Of a stretch of DNA of 64,000 nt, positions 3,279 to 59,295 are shown in pieces. Origin of the DNA: a plasmid; sequence record NZ_CP099764.1; one strand, 5' to 3'. A model generated the notes under the pieces. That model saw only the letters and a program-made list of their open reading frames with translations. It did no database searches and was not told the DNA's origin. Both the position numbers and the translations under genes were made by a program. Numbering within the stretch: position 1 is the first letter of the stretch; the number at the start of each line of letters is the position of its first letter.

Positions 3279-4271
3279 TCACAGGAAGACACAGTTACGT
3301 TTACGCCACATCAGGTAGCCGAAGTTTTTCTTTGTGTTGGGCGGATTTTTCCCGGTTTCCCAGCGGGTCACGCTGCGCCCGAACGGGTGGCACTGCCCGC
3401 TGTCCGGATACATATTCACCATCTGGTAACGCCAGCGTTCTTTGGGCAGGATTGGGGACGGATATTCATTACAGACGGCGTTATTTTTCCCGATGGTTTC
3501 CATAATCATGCCCTGACGGTGCAGCTTGAACGCCATGCGTTCACTGACCAGCAGGGAGGACTGCAACGGACTGGACTCATTACTCACCCAGCCATTGAAC
3601 GGGTACATACTTCCCTGCGAACCGGCACACCAGAACAGAGTATCGATGGGCATGTTAAAGGCGCTGGCAATGGCATCTGCAGCACAGGCCCCCTGTGCTA
3701 TCGGATTGGCAAAAATGACGGCTTCCGGATTGAGAATGGTGGTCAGGCTGCTGTCCGTCCAGGTGGGGTCGATTTCAGAAAGATAAGCGATATCCAGGTC
3801 ACCACCTTCCAGGCAGCCCAGCGATGTGATGATGTTAAGCCAGTACGTCAGCGGGTATTTGTACCAGTGAACGTGATAGAACGCTCCGTTCACCTGCTTC
3901 TCATCTTTTTTCGCCGTTCCCTGTGCCGTTTTACCAAAAGCCGGCAGGCTGAAGCCCAGGTTCACCATACATCCCGGTGACCGGGTGACGTCCGTCAGCG
4001 CCATCGGCTCCCAGTAACCAATGGCCAGTCCGATACGCCTGAACAGCGGCGGCGGTGCCGGACAAATCTGAATGGGCATCGACGGGTTCGCCGTGTCGGG
4101 GACCTTACCCTGACTGACTTTGATACTGCCCAGCGAGAGCGGGAAAATACAGCTCCAGCAGATATCCGTGATCGGGTTTACAAAACGCCCCTCACAGGCA
4201 GAATCCGCAGACGCCGCAGGGACATGACCGGCGAGAAGGAATAACATCAGCAGCCACAGGCTTCGCTTCAT
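3279..4271 (-). CDS. traU: TraU, pilus assembly / DNA transfer protein (330 aa)
   Basis: 330 aa as in F TraU, signal peptide MKRSLWLLMLFLLAGHVPAASA, F gene order. Confidence 0.9.
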   Translation of the reverse strand: MKRSLWLLMLFLLAGHVPAASADSACEGRFVNPITDICWSCIFPLSLGSIKVSQGKVPDTANPSMPIQICPAPPPLFRRIGLAIGYWEPMALTDVTRSPGCMVNLGFSLPAFGKTAQGTAKKDEKQVNGAFYHVHWYKYPLTYWLNIITSLGCLEGGDLDIAYLSEIDPTWTDSSLTTILNPEAVIFANPIAQGACAADAIASAFNMPIDTLFWCAGSQGSMYPFNGWVSNESSPLQSSLLVSERMAFKLHRQGMIMETIGKNNAVCNEYPSPILPKERWRYQMVNMYPDSGQCHPFGRSVTRWETGKNPPNTKKNFGYLMWRKRNCVFL

Positions 4272-4900
4272 TTTCTGCCCTCCTCTGCCGGAATAAATTC
4301 CACCTTCAGGAAGCGATTGCCGGGAACGGCGCTCACCCGTGCCGGTACCTGATCGATGCCGAGGCGCTGGCAGAGCACACCGTTCTGGTCAAAGTAAACA
4401 CGGCTGTCCAGTGCTTTCTGCATCTCCGGGATACTGCCCTGCACCAGGATAATTTTGCTCTCCAGTGTGGGCGGCGTCTGGCGTTTCATCCAGGCAACCT
4501 GCGCCGGATCATCGCCATTGATGAAATACAGCGTCTGGTTAAAAGGAACATACTGCAGCGGATTCATCACTTCACCCTGGCGGGCAAACACCCGCCCTTC
4601 GTTATCCCGGATATCCGCAGCCAGTCTGACGGACGGGTCAAACAACCGGCTGCCGTATTTCTCCGTGCGTCCGATACCGGGCACGGCAGGGGGCCGCAGA
4701 CTGTTGCGGATCACCCGCTCCTTAAAGGCATCCATTTTCCGGCCCATCTCACCGGACTGCTCCAGTACCGTCAGGCGCTGCATGATCACCGTCAGCATGT
4801 CCGGCTCCTTTACCGGCCACAGATCGCCCCAGGTGCCAAGATCGGCGGCGGCCACACTCTGCCCCCATACCAGCAGGGCAATCAGCCCCCGACATCTCAT
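4268..4900 (-). CDS. traW: TraW, pilus assembly protein (about 210 aa; the listed ORF carries an N-terminal extension that overlaps trbI)
   Basis: ORF 4268..5014; an internal Met (MRCRGLIALLVWGQSVAAA signal peptide) gives 210 aa as in F TraW. Confidence 0.8.
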   Translation of the reverse strand: MRCRGLIALLVWGQSVAAADLGTWGDLWPVKEPDMLTVIMQRLTVLEQSGEMGRKMDAFKERVIRNSLRPPAVPGIGRTEKYGSRLFDPSVRLAADIRDNEGRVFARQGEVMNPLQYVPFNQTLYFINGDDPAQVAWMKRQTPPTLESKIILVQGSIPEMQKALDSRVYFDQNGVLCQRLGIDQVPARVSAVPGNRFLKVEFIPAEEGRK

Positions 4901-5283
4901 GGTTCTGCCCTCATTCGCCGGGCAATATCCTGCTGGATTTCCCGGGTGATATCCGGTGCCCCCTGTACCACAGCAGGCGACACCAGAATGACCGCGTGGT
5001 GTTTCTGCTGCCACGCCTGCAGGCTGGCTTCCAGTGCCGTGTTAAAACGCGCTGAAAGGGCTTTTGACTGTACTTCTGACAGTTGTTTCTGACTGGCGCT
5101 GTCAAAAAACGCATCTACGGTCTGTTTCATGTTGAAGGCGACAGTCACCGGTGCGTTCAGTCTGACAATGCCGTAACTGACAGCTGCGTTCAGTAACACC
5201 ATTGCCAGACAACCTGGCACCGTCCACCACCAGTGGCTGCGTCGTTCTGCCGTGACGTCGGCGGGTTTCTGCGTTGAACTCAT
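4897..5283 (-). CDS. trbI: TrbI (128 aa)
   Basis: 128 aa as in F TrbI, between traC and traW, overlapping stop/start. Confidence 0.8.
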   Translation of the reverse strand: MSSTQKPADVTAERRSHWWWTVPGCLAMVLLNAAVSYGIVRLNAPVTVAFNMKQTVDAFFDSASQKQLSEVQSKALSARFNTALEASLQAWQQKHHAVILVSPAVVQGAPDITREIQQDIARRMRAEP

Positions 5284-7907
5284 GCAACACTCCTGTATTT
5301 CTCATGTTCTTCCAGCCAGGCTTCCAGCGAAGCCATCTCCGGCCCTGACTTCTTCCACGCCAGCTGCCACACCGCCTCATGAATACTCAGCCCCTCTTTA
5401 CGTTTCTGCTGCACAAACTCAAAATCCGGGCCGTCAGAGCTGTACATGGCGCGGCTTAACGGGTCCACAAACAGGCGGTGCCAGGAGGAATGGTTTTCCA
5501 CCTGCAGCAGGAAGGAACTGAACCACTGATCTTTGGCCGCACCGAACTTACCAATCATGTCACGCTGCAGTGGCAGGAACTGGTCCGGATACAGCTGGTT
5601 GTATTTCGCGAACTCCTTCGCACTCTGTTTGAGGATAATTTTGTAGGAGGAGTTACCCCATGCCGCGCGGGCAGCACTGGAGGCCTTGTCAGAGTCAAAG
5701 TCGACGATGTTCTGTGTGATGGTGATATAGGCACCGGTATGACGGCGGGCGGTACGGTAACCTTTCTCAATAAACTCACCGACCTTGTGATTTTTGAAGT
5801 CCAGCAGACGCCATCCCTCATCAATGACGTTCAGTTTTTTGAGGTTACGCGGCGTGCGGTACATCCTGTTCTCGATGTAAATAATGAGGCTGAACATCAC
5901 CGCAACCAGCAGTGACGGACGGTCTTCCAGTCCGCCCAGCTCCAGCACCACCATTTTCGCATCATCCCGCAGGGACGGCTCATCAGAGTTAAAATACCGG
6001 CCGTAAGTGCCGCCGGCGGTATATTGATCCAGCAGGACAATCATTTCATCCAGACGGCTGCGGATGGTCGGTGACTCGACATACTGGTCGTTATCACGGG
6101 CGTTTTTCAGGAAATCCACCACATCATCGATGCGCGCCCTGTTCTTTTTAGCCAGCCAGGAGGCCCTGACCGCCTGCAGCAGCAGACCTTCATGCACTTC
6201 ATCCAGGTTACCGTTGGGGCTGGCCATCACCGACAACTGGTCACGGACACGCTCCGCTGACTGGTCAATATCGGTGATGTTCGCAAACGGGTTAAAACGC
6301 AGGGTTTCACCGTCCAGATACACCCCGCCCATGTTCTCACACAGGGACTTATATCCATCCCCCATGTCAAACACCACGGCAAAGCCCCCGGAGTCCAGCA
6401 CGCTGCGGATAAGGGGCTGTATCAGTCCGGTTTTACCGGCCCCGGAGGTGCCACAGACCGCCATGTTGTAGTTGGTGTTATTCATCCCCCGGAAGAAAAT
6501 ATCGATAAACGCCAGCTGGTTACGGTAGGTGGGTGCCAGCAGACCTGCCGGTGTCAGGGGGTTATCCGCCACTAACGGCATCAGGTTGGCCACATTAAAG
6601 CTCTCTGCGCGCTGAACCACACCGGCCTCTTTCAGCTGTTTAAACAGCCCTTTCCCGGCCATAAAGGGAAGGCAGGTCAGGAAATTACGCATGTGGTTAA
6701 AGCGCGGTGAAATCAGCTCAAAACCGTTTTTACGGAAGCTGTTCAGGATGTCCTGCTCCACTTCCAGCGCCGTTTCATTATTGTCCTTGCAGAATGCTGT
6801 GATGTTGAGGAAGTAGGACACGACAGAGGACTGACCGGAGCCCAGCCGCTGACGCAGTTCCCCCCACTCCTTCGCCTCTTTCTCCACGGACGGAAACCAT
6901 TTGGCATAGGAGGTCTTCGACTTTTTCTCCAGGTCCATGTACTTCAGGTTGGCTTCGCTGTGGGTTTTCACCTGGTCTTCCACCACCAGAGTCAGCGTCA
7001 GGATGAACGGACAGGAGATGGACAGTTCCGGGTTCAGCAGGTTGCTGTAGTTGTCGGCCATGTTCCACAGGAAGGCGATTTCCGGGTTACGGGCCAGATG
7101 GAAATTCAGGATGCGGGCCGTGCTGTTCCTGCCCTTCTCACGCAGGCCCAGCGTCAGGTAATCCGCCCGGACTTTCAGGTCAAAACTGTCCTCCACACAC
7201 TGATAATTCAGATCAGAATACGGGTCCAGCTGACGTCTTTTCGGATACAGGGAGTCCGGGTTATGGTTAATCATCTCCCCGACAATATCGATAAAGGCCT
7301 GTGCATCCACCGCCTGTGTGGTGATACTGGCCCCCTGTAACGACGCCCGGATGATTTTCACCAGGTTTTCCATTTCCAGAATATCAGCCCGGCTTTTTTT
7401 CTTCGAGGGAGAACAGTACGAGAAGAATACCCGGTAATGGCGCAGGGTCAGGGGCAGATTCATCCCCTCCGGCAGCGGAAACTGTGTCGCTGCCGCGTTC
7501 ATATAATAGGCACGGGTAATGGCGTTAAACCGTTCAGCCTGTTCACCCGACCAGGAGAACTCACGCAGCCCGTATTCAATCCTGTCACCAACCAGCTGAC
7601 TGGACATCAGATGGATGCAGAACGGCACCCCGCGCGGCAGTTTGGTGCGCAGCATGTGATCGAGGGCCTCCACAATGGACTCATTCGCCCCATTGATGGG
7701 AATGGCTTCCAGCATAAAGCCCATCGTGGTGTCATTCATGAACAGACCGGATTCCTGGTTGTAATCACGGTACGGCAGCAGACGACTGAACTGCGGGAAG
7801 CTCATTTCGCCCAGAACTTCATTGGCCTTTGCGGATTCGTCAGGCAGTTTCAGTGCTGTGACGAGGGAGTTAACCGCCTGAGTGACGGCCTCAAGTGGAT
7901 TATTCAC
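5280..7907 (-). CDS. traC: TraC, VirB4-family T4SS ATPase (875 aa)
   Basis: 875 aa identical in length to F TraC; Walker A motif GTSGAGKTG, Walker B-like DEGWRLL. Confidence 0.95.
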   Translation of the reverse strand: MNNPLEAVTQAVNSLVTALKLPDESAKANEVLGEMSFPQFSRLLPYRDYNQESGLFMNDTTMGFMLEAIPINGANESIVEALDHMLRTKLPRGVPFCIHLMSSQLVGDRIEYGLREFSWSGEQAERFNAITRAYYMNAAATQFPLPEGMNLPLTLRHYRVFFSYCSPSKKKSRADILEMENLVKIIRASLQGASITTQAVDAQAFIDIVGEMINHNPDSLYPKRRQLDPYSDLNYQCVEDSFDLKVRADYLTLGLREKGRNSTARILNFHLARNPEIAFLWNMADNYSNLLNPELSISCPFILTLTLVVEDQVKTHSEANLKYMDLEKKSKTSYAKWFPSVEKEAKEWGELRQRLGSGQSSVVSYFLNITAFCKDNNETALEVEQDILNSFRKNGFELISPRFNHMRNFLTCLPFMAGKGLFKQLKEAGVVQRAESFNVANLMPLVADNPLTPAGLLAPTYRNQLAFIDIFFRGMNNTNYNMAVCGTSGAGKTGLIQPLIRSVLDSGGFAVVFDMGDGYKSLCENMGGVYLDGETLRFNPFANITDIDQSAERVRDQLSVMASPNGNLDEVHEGLLLQAVRASWLAKKNRARIDDVVDFLKNARDNDQYVESPTIRSRLDEMIVLLDQYTAGGTYGRYFNSDEPSLRDDAKMVVLELGGLEDRPSLLVAVMFSLIIYIENRMYRTPRNLKKLNVIDEGWRLLDFKNHKVGEFIEKGYRTARRHTGAYITITQNIVDFDSDKASSAARAAWGNSSYKIILKQSAKEFAKYNQLYPDQFLPLQRDMIGKFGAAKDQWFSSFLLQVENHSSWHRLFVDPLSRAMYSSDGPDFEFVQQKRKEGLSIHEAVWQLAWKKSGPEMASLEAWLEEHEKYRSVA

Positions 7908-8938: not shown

Positions 8939-9186
8939 TGTCCCTCACCTTTCTCATCGCAGTTCACAAAATCATTCTTCAAATCCCTGACCGTACAGGT
9001 TTTTACAATGTCAGGATTTTCAAAAACCGTATTCCGTGATGATTTATAAACATATGCCACAATGCGTTTCCCCCCCGCATCAGGTTCTGGCACACTGACT
9101 TCACATAACGGAGGGGTTATTCCGGATTCATACAGCACCGGATACTTTATTTTTTTGACGCTGCCATCAGAAACCAGCTTATTCAT
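8935..9186 (-). CDS. trbG: TrbG (83 aa)
   Basis: 83 aa as in F TrbG; position between trbD and traV. Confidence 0.7.
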   Translation of the reverse strand: MNKLVSDGSVKKIKYPVLYESGITPPLCEVSVPEPDAGGKRIVAYVYKSSRNTVFENPDIVKTCTVRDLKNDFVNCDEKGEGQ

Positions 9187-9499
9187 CGAAGGGTTCCTTA
9201 TATTTCTGAATAATTCTGTCGATTAGTTCTTTCACCGGAACAGATTTTCCGCTACCGGATTGTCCGGCAACCACAATATGCCCCGGAGAAGAAAATAAGC
9301 TCATCGACATACCCTTCTTCATCACACCGACAGCAGCCATATTAAAATTGTGCGGCAATGATTCAGAACTGAATTCCTTCGGTGCAGGAAGTACGATTCT
9401 TGTGGTGCAGTTACTGAGAACAGCATGCATAAGATCATCTGATACGCTTTTATCCGGTACAGAGCGGGCAGTAATAACATTAATATTACGCATGTTCAT
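9179..9499 (-). CDS. trbD: TrbD-like small protein with P-loop-like motif (GQSGSGKS); start uncertain
   Basis: ORF 9179..9589; the Met codons at 9499/9493 follow the traP stop; F carries trbD at this slot. Confidence 0.45.
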   Translation of the reverse strand: MNMRNINVITARSVPDKSVSDDLMHAVLSNCTTRIVLPAPKEFSSESLPHNFNMAAVGVMKKGMSMSLFSSPGHIVVAGQSGSGKSVPVKELIDRIIQKYKEPFDE

Positions 9500-10067
9500 T
9501 TTTATCTCCGTTGTTTCTGATTGTTCTGTCATCAGGGAAATAAACATGGCACTCCCTGATTTTTCCCGGCAGGGAAGTGTCTTCTGCAAGAACTTCCTTC
9601 AGACGCTCATCTGCTGTTGCCACACGGACACATTTCATTTTTCCGGGTCGCACCGGATATTTCCCGGTGCCTGCCGCAAACGACATATACATAAGTGCCA
9701 GCGTTGCCCAGAATGCGGTGACCAGTTGCATCAGTGACCGGTCAGTCTCCCTGACATAATCTGCAGCATCAGCAGCACGGTAACGGCAGATTTTCTCTTC
9801 TGCTCCTGGAAGATCATGCAGAGAAGGCAAACATTCTCTTACAGGAAACTGCCCGGCAGGGGCTGTTTGTCTTACGAAGTCAATTTCCTGAACCAGTAAT
9901 TTTCCTGGTGTGGTGTTGTCCTTCCATAAAACAAACAGAGCCATCAGGGCCATTGTGGCCAGTGGCCAGATAACCACAAACCTGACGACCCACAGCAGCC
10001 AGCGAACGACAAACGCCACACGGAATGTCAGTGCATCACCCGCCATTTCCGCCCTCCTTGCCGGCAT
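9486..10067 (-). CDS. traP: TraP, inner-membrane pilus-stability protein (about 190 aa; start at 10067 or 10046)
   Basis: hydrophobic N-terminus (WLLWVVRFVVIWPLATMALMALFVLW), size and position between traB and trbD as in F. Confidence 0.75.
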   Translation of the reverse strand: MPARRAEMAGDALTFRVAFVVRWLLWVVRFVVIWPLATMALMALFVLWKDNTTPGKLLVQEIDFVRQTAPAGQFPVRECLPSLHDLPGAEEKICRYRAADAADYVRETDRSLMQLVTAFWATLALMYMSFAAGTGKYPVRPGKMKCVRVATADERLKEVLAEDTSLPGKIRECHVYFPDDRTIRNNGDKNEHA

Positions 10068-11487
10068 CCCCGCCCAGCGGGTTCTTGTCTCCGGACATAA
10101 ACTGCTGCGGATTCAGATTGCCCAGCTGTTTCAGCATCTGGTCGGTGTTAAAACCGTTCAGGTGGCTTTCTGCCGAGGGAGGATTCGGCACCGGGCTTTC
10201 CGGGTTACCCTCTTCCGCTGTACTCTGTGACTGCTCCAGCGCCATTTCCTCCACGGTTTTCAGCTGGAAGCCGTCCTGGAACACCACGGTCACTTCGTTG
10301 CCCGCACCAATCGGTATCACCGGGTGATACTGTTCGGCACGTTTGATGTAGTAGTCACTGAGCGTCTGTGCGGCTTTCGATGCGCCGCCACCGATACCCA
10401 TTTTCAGGACATCACCAGCCCCGTAAGCGGCTGTGGCACCCAGCCCGACAGCCGGCTGGGAGGCGCGCTCCATTCCCTGACCGATACCGTCAACAAATCC
10501 CGCGCCCCATGCCCAGCCGAGGATTTTGCCGTTACGCATCACCACTTCGCCCTTGATACCGTTTTTACCCCGGAAGCTGACATGCCCCTTAATCGGCATA
10601 TCAATGGTTTTGCCGTCCTTCAGGCAGCTGATATTGCGGGTACGTACAATGGCACGCTCACTGGAGACATCCCCCCAGGCTTCCAGCCCCACAAAACATC
10701 CCGTTGCGTCATACGTTTTGCTGTTCGGCATTTCCACCAGGCCGGTGATACGCAGCTGCATCGGCACCGTGGATTCATTACCGGTGACTGAGGCATTGGC
10801 ATCCGCCCCTTCAATCAGCATGGCTTTCGCAAAACTTCCTGACGGAATGTACGGCAGTGATGGTCCCTGTTTTCCCTCATTACGGGTAAACACCTTACGC
10901 TGTATCCGGTTAGGCACCGGCACAGACTGGTACGTCACCTGTGGTGGTGGCGTGACACCATTCCCGGGATAAAACGCCGTCGGCGGTGGAACAGCAACGC
11001 TGCCCTGCGGCGGGAAGGATACGGGGGTGTTTCCTGGCTGTGGTTCGCCTTCCGGCCCGGGCGGTGAGGCTGGCGTCTGCGGTACAGGCTCACCGGTCGC
11101 GGTGACGGGATTTGCACCCAGGGCTTTCACCTGCTCTGCCAGTGCAGCATTGTCCTGTCCCAGCTTTTCAATACGACGCTGGTCATAACCGCGCTGTTTG
11201 TTCAGGACATCCAGTTCACGACGGATTTCCTCATACTGCTTCTGCATCTGTGCCGCCGTCACCTGCATCTCTGTAGTAGCATGCTGACGCACCTTGTCAT
11301 CAAAGGTCGTATCCACCACACCGGTCATATCCGGCACAGGCTCCTGTTCAGCCACGGTTTCACCGTTACCGGACATGTCCACATCAGACAGATACAGCGC
11401 ACCACCAATCGCGGAGGCTGCACCGACAACCACAATCCCCAGCCACAGGTACTGCTTGCGTTTCACAATGGTATTGATACTGGCCAT
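10036..11487 (-). CDS. traB: TraB, VirB10-like T4SS core protein (483 aa)
   Basis: Pro-rich linker (PQTPASPPGPEGEPQPGNTP...) followed by a VirB10-like C-terminal domain; F order traK-traB. Confidence 0.9.
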   Translation of the reverse strand: MASINTIVKRKQYLWLGIVVVGAASAIGGALYLSDVDMSGNGETVAEQEPVPDMTGVVDTTFDDKVRQHATTEMQVTAAQMQKQYEEIRRELDVLNKQRGYDQRRIEKLGQDNAALAEQVKALGANPVTATGEPVPQTPASPPGPEGEPQPGNTPVSFPPQGSVAVPPPTAFYPGNGVTPPPQVTYQSVPVPNRIQRKVFTRNEGKQGPSLPYIPSGSFAKAMLIEGADANASVTGNESTVPMQLRITGLVEMPNSKTYDATGCFVGLEAWGDVSSERAIVRTRNISCLKDGKTIDMPIKGHVSFRGKNGIKGEVVMRNGKILGWAWGAGFVDGIGQGMERASQPAVGLGATAAYGAGDVLKMGIGGGASKAAQTLSDYYIKRAEQYHPVIPIGAGNEVTVVFQDGFQLKTVEEMALEQSQSTAEEGNPESPVPNPPSAESHLNGFNTDQMLKQLGNLNPQQFMSGDKNPLGGDAGKEGGNGG

Positions 11488-54387: not shown

Positions 54388-55581
54388 ATGTCATCTAAGA
54401 TCGAAGATACGCCCCAAAAAACCCTGTCCTGCTGGCCACTGGCGTTCAGTGCCGGTCTTCTCGGTATCGGACAGAACGGTCTGCTGGTTGTACTCCCTGT
54501 TCTGGTCATACAGACAAATCTGAGTCTGTCTGTATGGGCTGCCCTGCTGATGCTGGGCTCAATGCTGTTTCTGCCATCTTCCCCATGGTGGGGAAAGCAA
54601 ATTTCCCTTACTGGCAGTAAGACTGTGGTGCTGTGGGCTCTGGGAGGATATGGCGTAAGCTTTACCCTGCTTGGGCTGGGAAGCGTGCTGATGGCTACCG
54701 GTGCCGTAACAACAGCGGTGGGGTTGGGAATATTAATCATCGCCCGGATCGTCTACGGTCTGACCGTGTCAGCAATGGTGCCAGCCTGTCAGGTCTGGGC
54801 ATTGCAGAGAGCGGGAGAAGGGAATCGCATGGCCGCTCTGGCAACCATCAGCTCCGGCCTGAGCTGCGGCAGGCTATTCGGGCCGCTGTGCGCGGCGGCA
54901 ATGTTGGTCATTCACCCTCTGGCGCCAGTGTGGATGCTGATGGCAGCTCCGGTGTGGGCTGTGGTGATGCTTCTGCGGTTGCCCGGCACACCACCACAGC
55001 CCACACCGGAGCGCAAGAGCGTCAGCCTGAAGCGGGATTGCCTGCCTTATCTGCTTTGCGCAATGTTACTGGCTGCGGCAATGAGCATGATGCAGCTTGG
55101 ACTTTCGCCAGCCCTTACTCGCCAGTTCGATACTGATACCACCACTATTAGCCAACAGGTGGCGTGGTTGTTGGGGCTGTCCGCAATAGCTGCGCTTATC
55201 GCGCAGTTCGTGGTACTCCGTCCACAGCGCCTGACTCCAGTGGCTCTGCTCCTGAGTGCCGGGGTGTTGATGAGTAGTGGTCTGGCTATCATGCTCACTG
55301 AACAGCTATGGTTGTTTTACCTGGGCTGTGCAGTGCTGTCATTTGGGGCCGCTCTGGCAACACCCGCTTATCAACTTTTACTGAATGATAAGCTGGCCGA
55401 CGGCGCAGGCGCGGGCTGGCTTGCGGCCAGTCACACACTTGGCTATGGGCTGTGCGCATTGTTGGTGCCACTGGCGTCGAAAACAGGTGTCTCAATCGCG
55501 CTGATTGTGACGGCATTATTTGCCGCTGTATTATTTACCATAGTGTCTGCATGTATTTGGCATTACCGTACAATCAAGTAA
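54388..55581 (+). CDS. shiF: ShiF, MFS transporter divergent from iucA (397 aa)
   Basis: 12-TM MFS profile; conserved partner of the aerobactin locus. Confidence 0.85.
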   Translation: MSSKIEDTPQKTLSCWPLAFSAGLLGIGQNGLLVVLPVLVIQTNLSLSVWAALLMLGSMLFLPSSPWWGKQISLTGSKTVVLWALGGYGVSFTLLGLGSVLMATGAVTTAVGLGILIIARIVYGLTVSAMVPACQVWALQRAGEGNRMAALATISSGLSCGRLFGPLCAAAMLVIHPLAPVWMLMAAPVWAVVMLLRLPGTPPQPTPERKSVSLKRDCLPYLLCAMLLAAAMSMMQLGLSPALTRQFDTDTTTISQQVAWLLGLSAIAALIAQFVVLRPQRLTPVALLLSAGVLMSSGLAIMLTEQLWLFYLGCAVLSFGAALATPAYQLLLNDKLADGAGAGWLAASHTLGYGLCALLVPLASKTGVSIALIVTALFAAVLFTIVSACIWHYRTIK

Positions 55582-55769
55582 GGCTATGATGTTGTACTCA
55601 CAGCCGGCATAACGTCCTGTGCAATTTCGCTGTCGAAACCGCCTGTGCTGACCGCCCAGTGCACTCACCTGAAGCACATCGCAGCATGCCACCAGGATAC
55701 CAGATCGTCTTCTGAAATGGGTGGATACATTGGCAACGTTAACCGCAACAATTTTTCAGAGAGAATTTT

Positions 55770-55808
55770 GGGGGGTGAGGGCCAGTGATGTAAAAAATAC
55801 GCCAAGAG
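55770..55808 (+). repeat. Tn3-family-like 38-39 bp terminal inverted repeat, left copy
   Basis: ggggggtgagggccagtgatgtaaaaaatacgccaagag; inverted partner at 57356-57395. Confidence 0.6.
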
Positions 55809-55960
55809 GTTAATTCATTGTTTATACTGATATGTCAGGTAATGCGTTTGCAGTCATTACAGTCGTCATGGAGACTGTAATGACTGCAAACGCATACCAT
55901 GGAGCGAAATTCTATCCTAAGCGTCACATTAGTTGATAAACCTGTAACGTTAATGAATTC

Positions 55961-56341
55961 TCATGCGAAAAGTATGGTTATGATAAAAAAGCCTAAAGCT
56001 GTCATGATGAGGGAGCCAATGACGTGAACAAGTACAGACGTCAAAGCCCATATATAATTTCCCGCCTGGAGTAATGCGAATACTTCAACAGAAAATGTAG
56101 AGAAAGTACTCAGACCTCCACAAAGTCCCGTTGTTATCATTAATTTCCAAAAAGGATCAAGGTGTGGTTGTCGTAAAAAGTACGCCAACGCAGTACCAAT
56201 AATTAACCCGGCAAGGAGGTTCACCACCAGTGTACCTGGAGGTAGATTTGGAAAAAGACTGTTAAAGCGTGTGGACAGTAACCAGCGCAGAGTACATCCA
56301 ACAGAACCGCCGATAATGACGGCAAAAAGTGATTTAATCAT
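55961..56341 (-). CDS. crcB: CrcB/FluC fluoride channel (126 aa)
   Basis: four-TM CrcB family, GGxxR-type motifs (VGGSVGCTLRW, LCGGLSTFSTFS). Confidence 0.9.
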   Translation of the reverse strand: MIKSLFAVIIGGSVGCTLRWLLSTRFNSLFPNLPPGTLVVNLLAGLIIGTALAYFLRQPHLDPFWKLMITTGLCGGLSTFSTFSVEVFALLQAGNYIWALTSVLVHVIGSLIMTALGFFIITILFA

Positions 56342-56412
56342 GTACCCCTCATAAAATAATTTTTTATCGTAACAATATCAGAATATGTTCTCATTTGACT
56401 GATATTGTTAAT

Positions 56413-56685
56413 TTATATCCTTTGACTACATGCAAGATAAGGGAAGGTTCTATTTATTGACATTAATACCCTCGACAATTGCTGAGCAGAAGCCCCCACG
56501 ACAAGTGACAGAATGACAACATCTACAGTGGGGAGCGTTTTATCGATGAACAAGCAACCAAGAAGTAACACGGCATAGGTGACGACAATGCCAGTAAGCA
56601 TAGAAATAACAAAAACGTGAGCTTTCATCATTCCTCCAGAATAACCCCGACGTGTAAGCCTGGGGGATTGGCACAATAATGTCAT
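56413..56685 (-). CDS. small membrane protein (90 aa) between the eno fragment and crcB
   Basis: two predicted TM helices; translationally coupled to the eno fragment. Confidence 0.4.
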
Positions 56686-57116
56686 TTAAAGGCAGACTTT
56701 CCGGCAAATTGCGCCGATGAACCCAGTTCATCCTCAATTCTCATAAGCTGGTTATATTTTTCAATACGCTCACCCCGGCATGGAGCTCCCGTTTTGAGAT
56801 GACCTGCGCGCATTGCAACTGTCATATCGGCGATAAAGCTGTCCACTGTCTCACCACTGCGGTGTGAGATAAAGGTGCCCCAGTTGTTGTCATGGCAAAG
56901 TTGTACCGCATCAAAGGTTTCACTCAGGGAACCAATCTGGTTGAGTTTAATCAATGCTGAATTGGCAAGGTTTTCGTCAATGCCGCGCTGAATATACTTT
57001 ACGTTGGTCACAAACAGATCGTCGCCAACCAATTCTATCTGCTCTCCCAATGCACCATGCAGGATTTTCCATCCAGCCCAGTCATCTTCAGCTACCGTTA
57101 AGGGCAGGAAGATCAA
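56682..57116 (-). pseudogene. eno: C-terminal fragment of enolase (144 aa; N-terminal about 290 aa absent)
   Basis: ...SHRSGETEDSFIADLAV-like motif [48 protein letters not shown] is the enolase C-terminus. Confidence 0.8.
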
Positions 57117-57355
57117 CTAGGTGCTCTGGGGCTGGTGACCAATGCGGTTGTGCTGTGAAACACACTTTACATGCAGGAGGCGTTGTCACATCTTCGCAAA
57201 TCGGGAGAAACTCCTGAGGAGTAGCATCCGGCAAGATTATCGCTGCTGATACATAGCCATATAAATATGCTGGGGCATTATACGTCTTCGTTACCGGAAG
57301 ATATTCTTAAGGGTGAGTTAAGATCATTAAACTTCAATACAAACAATTAATTAAA

Positions 57356-57395
57356 CTCTTAGCGTGGTTTTTTACATCACTGGCCCTCGCCCCCC
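57356..57395 (-). repeat. Tn3-family-like terminal inverted repeat, right copy
   Basis: reverse complement ggggggcgagggccagtgatgtaaaaaaccacgctaagag; the inner ACGCTAAG motif is like the Tn3-family IRs. Confidence 0.6.
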
Positions 57396-57583
57396 AATTT
57401 TCTCTATGTTTTGCCACTACTTCCCTCATTTTACTGCGCTGTTTGCTATCCCTGAGAATCGACATTACTTGCTATCCAGTCCGCAGCAACTCTCTGGCAA
57501 CAAAACTTATCAGAATCATAAGTCTGTGCATTATTCGTTCAAGCGCATCGCCAATAAGCGGATGTTGCTGGCCGAGTGTTCTG

Positions 57584-58441
57584 CTAATCGGATGATAACA
57601 AATCCCGTGGTTCGGCATTTTCCTTTGTGCGTGCGTTGATGCTGGTAACGGTAAACGTCATGATGAACATGACCGCGAATAAGACAACAATTGTCGGAGC
57701 TGGCGCGCTGTCGATAAAAAAGGACAGCCAGACACCAGTCATTGAGACCAATATCGATATGCCAGTCGCCAGCAGGAGCGCAATATGAAAGCGTTGTGTC
57801 AGGAGTACCGCAATGGCACCAGGCGCAATGAGAAGAGAAATAGAGAGAATGATACCTACCGCTTTCAGCGTCGCCACAATGGTCAGGGAGACCATGCACA
57901 GCAGCCCATAATGCAGCCATCTCGTATGCAAACCGCTTGCCTGCGCCTGTTGATAATCAAAGCTGAACAGCAAAAAATCCCGCCATTTTACGCTAATAAC
58001 AAGTGTAACCAGTCCGGCAATAATCACCGTCTGGATTATATCGCCGATGGTTATCCCGAGCATGTCGCCGAAAAGAATATGATCAAGATGTACGTCTGGT
58101 TTGACTGCAATATACAAGATCAGACCTGCGGCAAACATGCCAGAAAAAACAATCCCCATCACTGTATCTTGCTTGATTCGGCTGTTGTCTTTCAGGTATC
58201 CCGTCGCCACCGCACAGAATACTCCGGCGACGAATGCCCCTGTAGCCAGAGGTAACCCCAGAATCCAGGCAAGCACGATGCCAGGAAAAACCGCATGACT
58301 CATCGCGTCACCCATCAGTGCCCAACTTTTCAGGACCAGAAAGACCGACAGCAGCGCACAGGGTATGGAAACTACCAGTGAAATCAGCAGTGCGTGACTC
58401 ATAAAGGTGAACTGCAGTGGCTCCAGTAATAATGCCATCAT
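57584..58441 (-). CDS. sitD: SitD, Mn/Fe ABC transporter permease (285 aa)
   Basis: ABC-3 permease, paralogue of sitC. Confidence 0.9.
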   Translation of the reverse strand: MMALLLEPLQFTFMSHALLISLVVSIPCALLSVFLVLKSWALMGDAMSHAVFPGIVLAWILGLPLATGAFVAGVFCAVATGYLKDNSRIKQDTVMGIVFSGMFAAGLILYIAVKPDVHLDHILFGDMLGITIGDIIQTVIIAGLVTLVISVKWRDFLLFSFDYQQAQASGLHTRWLHYGLLCMVSLTIVATLKAVGIILSISLLIAPGAIAVLLTQRFHIALLLATGISILVSMTGVWLSFFIDSAPAPTIVVLFAVMFIMTFTVTSINARTKENAEPRDLLSSD

Positions 58442-59295
58442 GAGCGATCCTCCAGCGCTTTATGCGCACGCCGACGATTTGCCAAAAGCCCATGGGTGGG
58501 CGCAAAGACAAATGCTAAAAGAAACAGCAGTGTCTGCGCCACCACGATGATTCCACCTGTCGCGCCGTCCAGAAAGTAACTGACCCACGCGCCGAGGAAA
58601 CTGGTCACACTGCCAATAGTTACAGCAATCATGAGCAGGCGGGGAAAACGATCGGTTAACAACCATGCTGTTGCACCGGGAGTCACCACCAGACAGATCA
58701 CCAGAAAGGCACCAACCGTTTGCAGCGCCGCAACGGTCGAAACCGACAGCAGGGTGAAGAAGAGGATTTTTAATCTGCCCGGATGCAATCCAATAGCACG
58801 GGCGTGATTCTCGTCGAAAAAGGTCACCATAAGATCTTTCCATTTGAAAAAAAGCACGATGATCGAGAGAATGCCAATGATAGTGAGTTGCAGGATATCC
58901 GCCGGATCGATTGCCAGAATATTGCCCAGGACGATGGTCTGAATGTTCACGGATGTCGGGTTCAATGACACCATAAACAGCCCCAGGCCAAAAAAGGACG
59001 AGAAGATCAGGCCGATGATGGCATCTTCTTTTAAGCGAGTGAGTTGGTTAAGAAACAGCATGCTGCCCGCTGCCAGTCCGCCGGAAAAGAAGGCTCCCAG
59101 AGAAAACGGAAGCCCCAGCATATATGCCCCCGCAACACCCGGGACAATAGAGTGCGACAGCGCATCGCCAATCAGCGACCAGCCTTTTAGCATCAGATAG
59201 CATGACAGGAAAGCGCAGAGACCGCCGACCATCGCCGAGACCCACATCGCATTGAGCATATATTCATAGCTGAAGGGTTCCAGTAGCACGTTCAT
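58438..59295 (-). CDS. sitC: SitC, Mn/Fe ABC transporter permease (285 aa)
   Basis: ABC-3 permease. Confidence 0.9.

Follow-up and report, generated by a model that had tools for sequence, protein, structure and literature searches.

Introduction

Two kinds of Tn3-derived element without a working transposase have been described that resemble the locus considered here, a 1,626-bp block (positions 55770 to 57395) of a plasmid (sequence record NZ_CP099764.1) of which a stretch of 64,000 nucleotides, here called the window, was analyzed. The mobile insertion cassettes (MICs) of Xanthomonas carry TALE genes as passengers between TnXax1-type inverted repeats (IRs) of the Tn3 family and are flanked by a direct repeat; they are found at many sites, some with 5-bp target-site duplications (TSDs), indicating cassette movement (PMC4337579). 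The elements termed TIMEs have 38-bp Tn3-type IRs, lie in AT-rich targets with duplications of 5 or 6 bp, and are 262-bp non-coding sequences for which transposition has been shown experimentally (PMC4133298).

In gene content, the closest described system is the fluoride operon of Enterobacter cloacae FRM, ppaC-uspA-eno-gpmA-crcB-orf5249, which has a fluoride riboswitch, is induced by fluoride, and was shown by experiment to give high fluoride resistance, to which ppaC, uspA, eno, gpmA, and crcB all contribute (PMC5533749). On ColV-type plasmids, a “truncated enolase” and crcB have been listed as core genes and CrcB has been proposed to condense the plasmid (PMC4723317), while a urine-induced enolase has been proposed to aid siderophore synthesis (PMC3438092).

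The block in the window lies between shiF, an MFS transporter gene that ends at 55581, and sitD, a minus-strand gene that ends at 57584. On one side of it are the aerobactin genes and on the other the sit genes, both for iron uptake. A preliminary description, made from the sequence of the window, had placed it there and had taken it for a transposase-less Tn3-derived mobile cassette, MIC- or TIME-like, that ferried a fluoride-resistance unit into an iron-uptake island. The location, the coordinates of the IR pair, and the presence of crcB and an enolase C-terminal fragment between the repeats were all borne out. The evidence presented below nevertheless indicates, with a probability that we put at about 0.9, that the block is the remnant, decayed in place, of a Tn3-family fluoride-resistance transposon and not an actively moving cassette.

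Results

A longer form of the element at the same plasmid site

A 5,867-bp form of the element was identified at the shiF-sitD site of 16 ColV-type plasmids, exemplified by Escherichia albertii pKBSW50i-A (L001), with IRs and flanks identical to those in the window. The cargo of this long form comprises crcB, a small open reading frame (ORF), full-length eno, a universal stress protein gene (usp), and a gene for a Mn-dependent inorganic pyrophosphatase (ppaC), upstream of which lies a fluoride riboswitch (RF01734; 43.8 bits, gathering score 34). It also holds the C-terminal part of a serine resolvase (TnpR, approximately residues 93–184) and a frameshifted tnpA (approximately residues 440–990).

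Comparison by blastn with L001 revealed that the element in the window is the long form minus 4,241 bp, with a single junction. Window positions 55700–57092 aligned with L001 positions 9001–10393, and the sequence from 57091 onward aligned with L001 from 14633 onward, an overlap of 2 nt. The junction (57091–57092) accordingly displays a 2-nt microhomology and fuses a fragment of eno to a fragment of tnpA; ppaC, usp, and two-thirds of eno, all present in the longer form, are gone. Given that the two forms differ at an identical site by one internal deletion, the short form appears to have arisen where it is now located.

The long form is itself incomplete. When compared with an intact copy from Rouxiella (described below), it lacks 1,705 bp, corresponding to Rouxiella positions 4142–5846; this stretch takes in ∼87 codons from the start of tnpR, codons 1–429 of tnpA, and the intergenic region that separates the two genes. 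The res sites of Tn3-family elements normally sit in this intergenic region. Transposase-mediated adjacent deletion was considered as the source of both deletions and was rejected, as all of the endpoints are internal and none is at an IR.

Distribution of the short form

To a query made up of the cassette and 70 bp of sequence to either side of it, 1,170 PLSDB plasmids gave a match, 734 of them over at least 80% of its length and mostly at 99.9% identity. The left junction, presented as a query half inside and half outside the element, was spanned in 766 of the 775 matching plasmids. A right-end query, comprising the deletion junction, the tnpA stub, the right-hand IR (IRR), and the right flank, was spanned in 951 plasmids, and the matches that stopped at the IR tip came only from intact relatives of 91–92% identity. 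The preliminary description had proposed looking for the same cassette in different contexts on other plasmids; in PLSDB the flanks were the same throughout, and no copy of the short form in a second context was found among ∼950 plasmids. Some ColV-type plasmids carry IS1 or IS3 inside the cassette and others keep only its right ∼430 bp, which implies that the remnant is still eroding.

Intact relatives encode a Tn3-family transposase and a serine resolvase

A scan for the IR core (CCARYGATGTAAAAAACCACG) in one genome per species returned 44 loci, nearly all from Enterobacterales. In Rouxiella sp. T17, two contiguous loci (L047 and L044) make up an intact copy of 7,601 bp, in the order IR, crcB, a 60-aa ORF, eno (426 aa), usp, ppaC, fluoride riboswitch (46.3 bits), tnpR (187 aa), tnpA (1,002 aa), IR. 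The TnpA of this copy matched NF033527 with 1,108 bits (cut-off 500). A perfect 5-bp duplication, ATCTA, borders the copy, whose nucleotide identity to the ColV element is 90–92%. An 85%-identical copy (L004) was found on an IncHI-type plasmid of Enterobacter hormaechei, with an intact resolvase gene and a tnpA cut by IS26.

A metagenome scan with the crcB-side IR added three further contexts, including one full-length copy that retains its two IRs and is bordered by a 5-bp TSD, ATTGA; other members of the IR lineage have the 5-bp TSDs TAATA and AGTTA. In total, at least six different flanks were observed beside the crcB-side IR of the parent family, those of Rouxiella and of the ColV site included, and judged from these junctions the parent element is, or was, mobile. 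The intact relatives within this IR family encode an NF033527 Tn3-family transposase together with a serine resolvase and make 5-bp TSDs, so that the suggestion of the preliminary description that the repeats are Tn3-family ends holds. The L004, Rouxiella, and metagenome copies all have an intact tnpR, and the ancestor therefore had a resolvase gene. In the full-length metagenome copy, on contig Ga0183101_1000531 (L052, 3468–6735), tnpA lies in two pieces (residues 1–340 and 332–1002) that are ∼220 nt apart, which suggests a small insertion or duplication within that gene.

Of the sequenced relatives, an unnamed element on the Citrobacter freundii plasmid NZ_CP056645.1 (L003, 1875–9305) is the nearest, and similar elements occur in Klebsiella, Kluyvera, Silvania, and Morganella. 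Elements of this type share with the window 38-bp IRs of the pattern GGGG..GAGG.CCA..GATGTAAAAAACCACG.TAAG and a tnpA that runs into the IRR; their tnpR is divergent from tnpA, and 5-bp TSDs are found in the type. Their TnpA has 91% identity to the residues that survive in the window and ∼95% to that of the Rouxiella fluoride copy. They differ in their IR tips (GGGGTT, in contrast to GGGGGG in the window) and in their cargo, which in L003 consists of SIR2 and DUF87 genes, whereas the ColV/Rouxiella lineage carries the fluoride operon. In L003, the SIR2-family and DUF87 genes adjoin tnpR and resemble a defense-type gene pair riding on a Tn3-family element. The C. freundii copy itself has no TSD (AAATC versus TTTCA) and is probably rearranged, for which reason it was set aside in the TSD comparison. 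A search with the exact window IR, allowing up to three mismatches, gave no match in L003 or in locus L002 because their IRs differ at more positions, and the ends of both were found instead by repeat finding and a degenerate IR-core pattern.

On the Rahnella aquatilis plasmid CP042359.1, an eno-usp-ppaC block of 78–81% identity was observed, with no match to the IR or to the crcB end at megablast sensitivity. The operon may be represented here by a source-like version from Yersiniaceae that is not part of a transposon.

Termini of the element and the flanking repeat

The cargo-side repeat, IRL, occupies 55770–55808 on the plus strand (GGGGGGTGAGGGCCAGTGATGTAAAAAATACGCCAAGAG), and the tnpA-side repeat, IRR, occupies 57356–57395 on the minus strand (GGGGGGCGAGGGCCAGTGATGTAAAAAACCACGCTAAGAG when reverse-complemented), with its canonical 38 bp at 57358–57395. 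These 38 bp read GGGGGGCGAGG...ACGCTAAG, and IRL is the same sequence with three substitutions and a 1-nt deletion. The length of ∼38 bp, the GGGG start, and the TAAG end are those of Tn3-family IRs, and in sequence the pair belongs to the same family as the IRs of elements coding for Tn3-family transposases. When a 26-nt core of the IR was sought with at most three mismatches, it was present at only two places in the window, namely the two IRs, against an expectation of 0.00 from shuffled sequence. Homology between the L004 copy and the window starts exactly at 55770, the first G of the IR, with unrelated flanking sequence outside, and related intact elements have the same end position as IRR. 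The orthologous IRLs of the Rouxiella and metagenome copies read GGGGTTTGAGGGCCAGTGATGTAAAAAACCACGCCAAGAGG; relative to these, the inner part of the ColV IRL (55797–55800) has a 1-nt deletion and a substitution (AAAAAA-TACG in place of AAAAAACCACG), which are also present in the 5.87-kb form and may weaken transposase binding.

Immediately outside the IRs, the hexanucleotide AATTTT is present on both sides, at 55764–55769 and at 57396–57401, and the same flanks border the long form in L001. The 5-bp direct repeat for which the preliminary description had called is thus missing as such (the adjoining 5-mers, ATTTT and AATTT, differ), but a direct repeat of 6 bp is present, and the chance of a 6-bp match beside both tips is ∼1 in 4,096 with equal base frequencies. 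Given that Tn3-derived non-autonomous elements have been reported to use AT-rich targets with duplications of 5 or 6 bp (PMC4133298), the repeat is within the known range and is presumed to be a true TSD, one base above what is usual for this IR lineage. The presumed target, AGAGAA-TT-TTCTCT (55758–55769 joined with 57396–57409), is an imperfect palindrome, and for this reason repeat finding extended the IR arms by 13 nt into the flanks. All three readings of the flanking repeat predict one and the same unoccupied site, ...CAGAGAGAATTTTCTCTATG... (GAGAGAATTTTCTCTATG, between shiF and sitD). The query for such a site consisted of the left and right flanks joined by a single AATTTT, or of a 22-nt exact pattern in the case of the metagenome collection. 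Chromosomal sit loci are homologous only from within sitD onward and are therefore unusable as an unoccupied site.

The transposase remnant

The enolase fragment and IRR are separated by ∼260 bp that proved to be tnpA sequence and not spacer. In plus-strand frame 1, positions 57093–57362 encode TnpA from residue 914 to the C terminus, with several in-frame stops, and run into IRR, as does the 3′ end of tnpA in other Tn3-family elements. With the stops masked, the translation matched positions 330–389 of 389 of the Pfam profile DDE_Tnp_Tn3 (PF01526; E = 2.4e-17), and tblastn against the intact L003 relative aligned it with residues 914–990 of the 1,002-aa transposase. The preliminary description had reported no transposase, which is correct for a functional gene but overlooks this stop-ridden 3′ stub.

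In the copy in the window, tnpR and the region between it and tnpA are missing, as is 91% of tnpA. No other Tn3-family tnpA was detected in the 64-kb window at E < 1e-3, and the cointegrate-resolution module (serine resolvase TnpR) is likewise absent from it. On this sequence evidence, the element is predicted to be incapable of self-transposition, and the enolase and tnpA fragments would both be pseudogenes.

Cargo genes retained in the 1,626-bp form

Of the cargo genes, crcB is intact (55961–56341, minus strand). It encodes a fluoride channel of 126 aa that matched the Pfam CRCB profile (E = 9e-27) and NCBIfam NF010792 (175.8 bits, cut-off 125), and the ColV and Rouxiella proteins are 97.6% identical, as determined by tblastn with the near-identical CrcB of the L001 long form. 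The eno remnant (56682–57092, minus strand) is a pseudogene fragment comprising the last 136 codons and the stop, or the 3′ third of the gene, and matched positions 158–293 of 296 of the Enolase_C profile. The ORF called here extends to 57116, and its first eight codons are antisense tnpA sequence. By contrast, eno is full-length in L001, L004, and Rouxiella.

Between these two genes lies a small hydrophobic, predicted membrane ORF (56413–56631, minus strand). The preliminary description gave it 90 aa from a longer ORF call (56413–56685), but the conserved frame starts at MMKAH behind its own GGAGG-type ribosome-binding site and encodes 72 aa in the window and 60 aa in other copies, the difference being due to a 1-nt deletion in the ColV lineage. 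Among the other copies, including L047/L044 and L004 (7590–7930), a length of 59–60 aa is held down to ∼80% identity. The ORF gave no Pfam or NCBIfam match, and its homologues, all at least 75% identical, are confined to this element lineage. A ratio of synonymous to non-synonymous codon differences of ∼1:1 suggests that it is under only moderate constraint.

The fluoride riboswitch (RF01734) was not found in window positions 55000–58500 at E ≤ 1, and an Rfam search of the element gave only sub-threshold chance matches, of microRNA models to a hairpin. This hairpin (55842–55895), situated between IRL and the crcB stop codon, is perfect, with a 23-bp stem and an 8-nt loop, and is followed by no T-run on either strand. 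In the L004 and Rouxiella copies, the arms are imperfect, the right arm being flawed and then followed by 21 extra bp. The quasi-palindrome therefore seems to have been perfected in the ColV lineage, perhaps by template switching.

Fluoride function and transcription of crcB

The long and intact forms resemble the E. cloacae FRM operon in having a riboswitch upstream of ppaC, followed by usp, eno, and crcB, a nearly identical gene set. The FRM operon has gpmA and is carried on a genomic island with transposases of unspecified type on its flanks (PMC5533749), whereas the transposon version has the 60-aa ORF instead and lies within a defined Tn3-family element. By analogy, the long form and the intact one would be expected to function as the FRM fluoride operon does. 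The remnant in the window, in comparison with the full FRM operon, retains only crcB, the small ORF, and one-third of eno. It would not be a working fluoride-resistance unit; ppaC and the sequence upstream of it, the riboswitch, usp, and two-thirds of eno have all been lost.

In its present position, crcB shares its strand with the sitABCD operon upstream of it, and a consensus scan found nothing resembling a terminator between sitD and IRR. Matches in the promoter and terminator scan were no more common than in shuffled sequence, and an internal crcB promoter is not established by them. In published quantitative reverse transcription-PCR data for the plasmid pS88, the in vivo fold-changes were 139.75 for sitD, 18.68 for the “putative enolase” ORF17, 9.74 for the hypothetical ORF16, and 6.08 for the CrcB-like ORF15; the induction of crcB was not statistically significant (p = 0.05–0.8 in the published table; PMC3438092). 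The values fall with distance from the sit promoter, as would be expected of read-through from sit. Any expression of crcB would thus most likely be via read-through from sitABCD.

Discussion

The forms described above can be arranged in a series of decay at one insertion site. In the proposed mechanism, the ancestor would have been a replicative Tn3-family transposon of ∼7.6 kb with working tnpA and tnpR genes and a cargo of ppaC, usp, eno, the 60-aa ORF, and crcB under the control of a fluoride riboswitch. In a single insertion, it would have entered an AT-rich stretch between shiF and sitD in an ancestor of the ColV-type virulence plasmids, duplicating AATTTT. A first deletion, of 1,705 bp, would then have removed the 5′ ends of tnpR and tnpA with the region between them and left the 5,867-bp form; a second, of 4,241 bp, running from approximately codon 290 of eno to approximately codon 914 of tnpA with the 2-nt microhomology, would have produced the 1,626-bp form, neither event involving the transposon ends. 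The outcome would be an intact crcB gene, deprived of its riboswitch and upstream sequence and transcribed, if at all, most likely by read-through from sitABCD.

With its crcB and small ORF enclosed by Tn3-type IRs next to a 77-residue tnpA stub interrupted by stops, the element is MIC-like in structure, and in structure only. Unlike the Xanthomonas MICs, it occupies one site only, has an intermediate decay form at that same site, and has kept a tnpA stub; all short-form copies share both flanks. Nor is it a TIME: at 1.6 kb it bears an intact gene, is derived by deletion, and gives no sign of movement. It is best classified as a decayed member of the Tn3 family.

The idea that the 1.6-kb unit was moved as such by a transposase acting in trans, and might still be mobilizable, draws on this structural agreement with MICs (PMC4337579) and on the direct repeat that flanks the unit in AT-rich DNA. 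Potential TnpA donors exist, in that related intact transposons are present in ∼190 Enterobacterales plasmids of PLSDB, and experiments have demonstrated that Tn3-derived non-autonomous elements as large as 3.9 kb can be mobilized in trans (PMC4133298). We nonetheless regard such a history as improbable. The 5,867-bp form, which is one internal deletion away and has its site, IRs, and flanks in common with the short form, indicates that the cassette formed after insertion; moreover, the short form is confined to this site among ∼950 plasmids, its IRL has an inner 1-nt deletion, and the window holds no Tn3-family transposase elsewhere. The ferrying of fluoride-resistance genes into the iron-uptake island, as envisaged in the preliminary description, would then be correct insofar as a Tn3-family element brought them, but the 1.6-kb cassette did no ferrying. 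It is more improbable still that the two IRs are solo ends of separate Tn3-family insertions that happen to bracket native plasmid crcB and eno genes. Solo IRs are common in plasmids and the two repeats are non-identical, being three substitutions and one indel apart; however, the same gene order between the same types of IR recurs as a single unit, bordered by a 5-bp TSD, both in Rouxiella and on a metagenome contig, the homology between the ColV element and L004 begins precisely at the IR tip, and identical 6-bp repeats border both ends.

A different question is whether crcB, with or without the small ORF, has been kept as a selected functional module under iron- and manganese-dependent (sit) regulation, conferring extra fluoride tolerance in host niches. 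The gene is intact and annotated as such across hundreds of plasmids, both deletions spared it, no terminator-like site separates it from sitD, and published measurements found transcripts, induced 4- to 6-fold in urine and in vivo (PMC3438092). Against this, the copies are ∼99.9% identical, so that intactness may reflect recent common descent; some plasmids have IS1 or IS3 in the cassette or have lost its left part; and the reported crcB induction did not reach significance. Furthermore, the E. coli chromosome reportedly already has a riboswitch-controlled crcB of its own (Baker et al. 2012, cited in PMC4723317). On balance, selection for the retained gene seems doubtful, although less so than either of the two histories considered above.

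Several observations weigh against decay in place of a single fluoride-resistance transposon, or against parts of that account. Both IR tips of the ColV element (55770–55775 and 57390–57395) read GGGGGG, whereas ∼45 relatives, other copies of the fluoride transposon among them, have GGGGTT and one has GGGGGT; the two ends of the ColV element thus share one and the same two-base difference. The flanking repeat is 6 bp long here, as opposed to 5 bp in all four checkable paired copies of the IR lineage. None of the 1,014 matching plasmids and 5,426 E. coli genomes searched had an unoccupied shiF-sitD site, nor did the metagenome collection yield one, and the insertion and the length of its duplication are consequently deduced from the flanking repeat alone. 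Finally, the read-through proposal draws on fold-changes taken from the literature and on a simple scan for consensus sites.

Decay in place of a Tn3-family fluoride transposon leaves the known workings of Tn3-family elements and of fluoride resistance unchanged and brings no mechanistic surprise. A more far-reaching proposal would combine two statements: that the parent is an undescribed, recently or still active Tn3-family transposon spreading a riboswitch-regulated fluoride operon in Enterobacterales, with at least six sites to its record, and that the ColV crcB has been rewired to the iron- and manganese-regulated sit promoter, its expression being coupled to host-niche signals, in a cassette that related transposases could still mobilize. 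Taken as a whole, this combination is unlikely. If rewiring of crcB to the sit promoter were nevertheless true, a fluoride channel would be tied to signals of the host niche. In the searchable literature, ISfinder and TnCentral being outside the search, we found no paper tying these plasmid genes to a Tn3-family element or describing a Tn3-family transposon with a riboswitch-controlled fluoride operon.

For the ColV-like plasmids of extraintestinal and avian pathogenic E. coli, the finding means that the “core genes” annotated as truncated enolase and CrcB-like protein, and probably the small ORF as well, are leftovers of transposon cargo. The enolase piece would be a pseudogene whose induction is most simply explained by read-through from sit. 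The intact relatives provide a defined mobile vehicle for fluoride resistance, a Tn3-family transposon with its cargo under a fluoride riboswitch, and the deletion junction and fixed site of the remnant are usable as lineage markers for the aerobactin-sit module in plasmids of E. coli, Klebsiella, and Salmonella.

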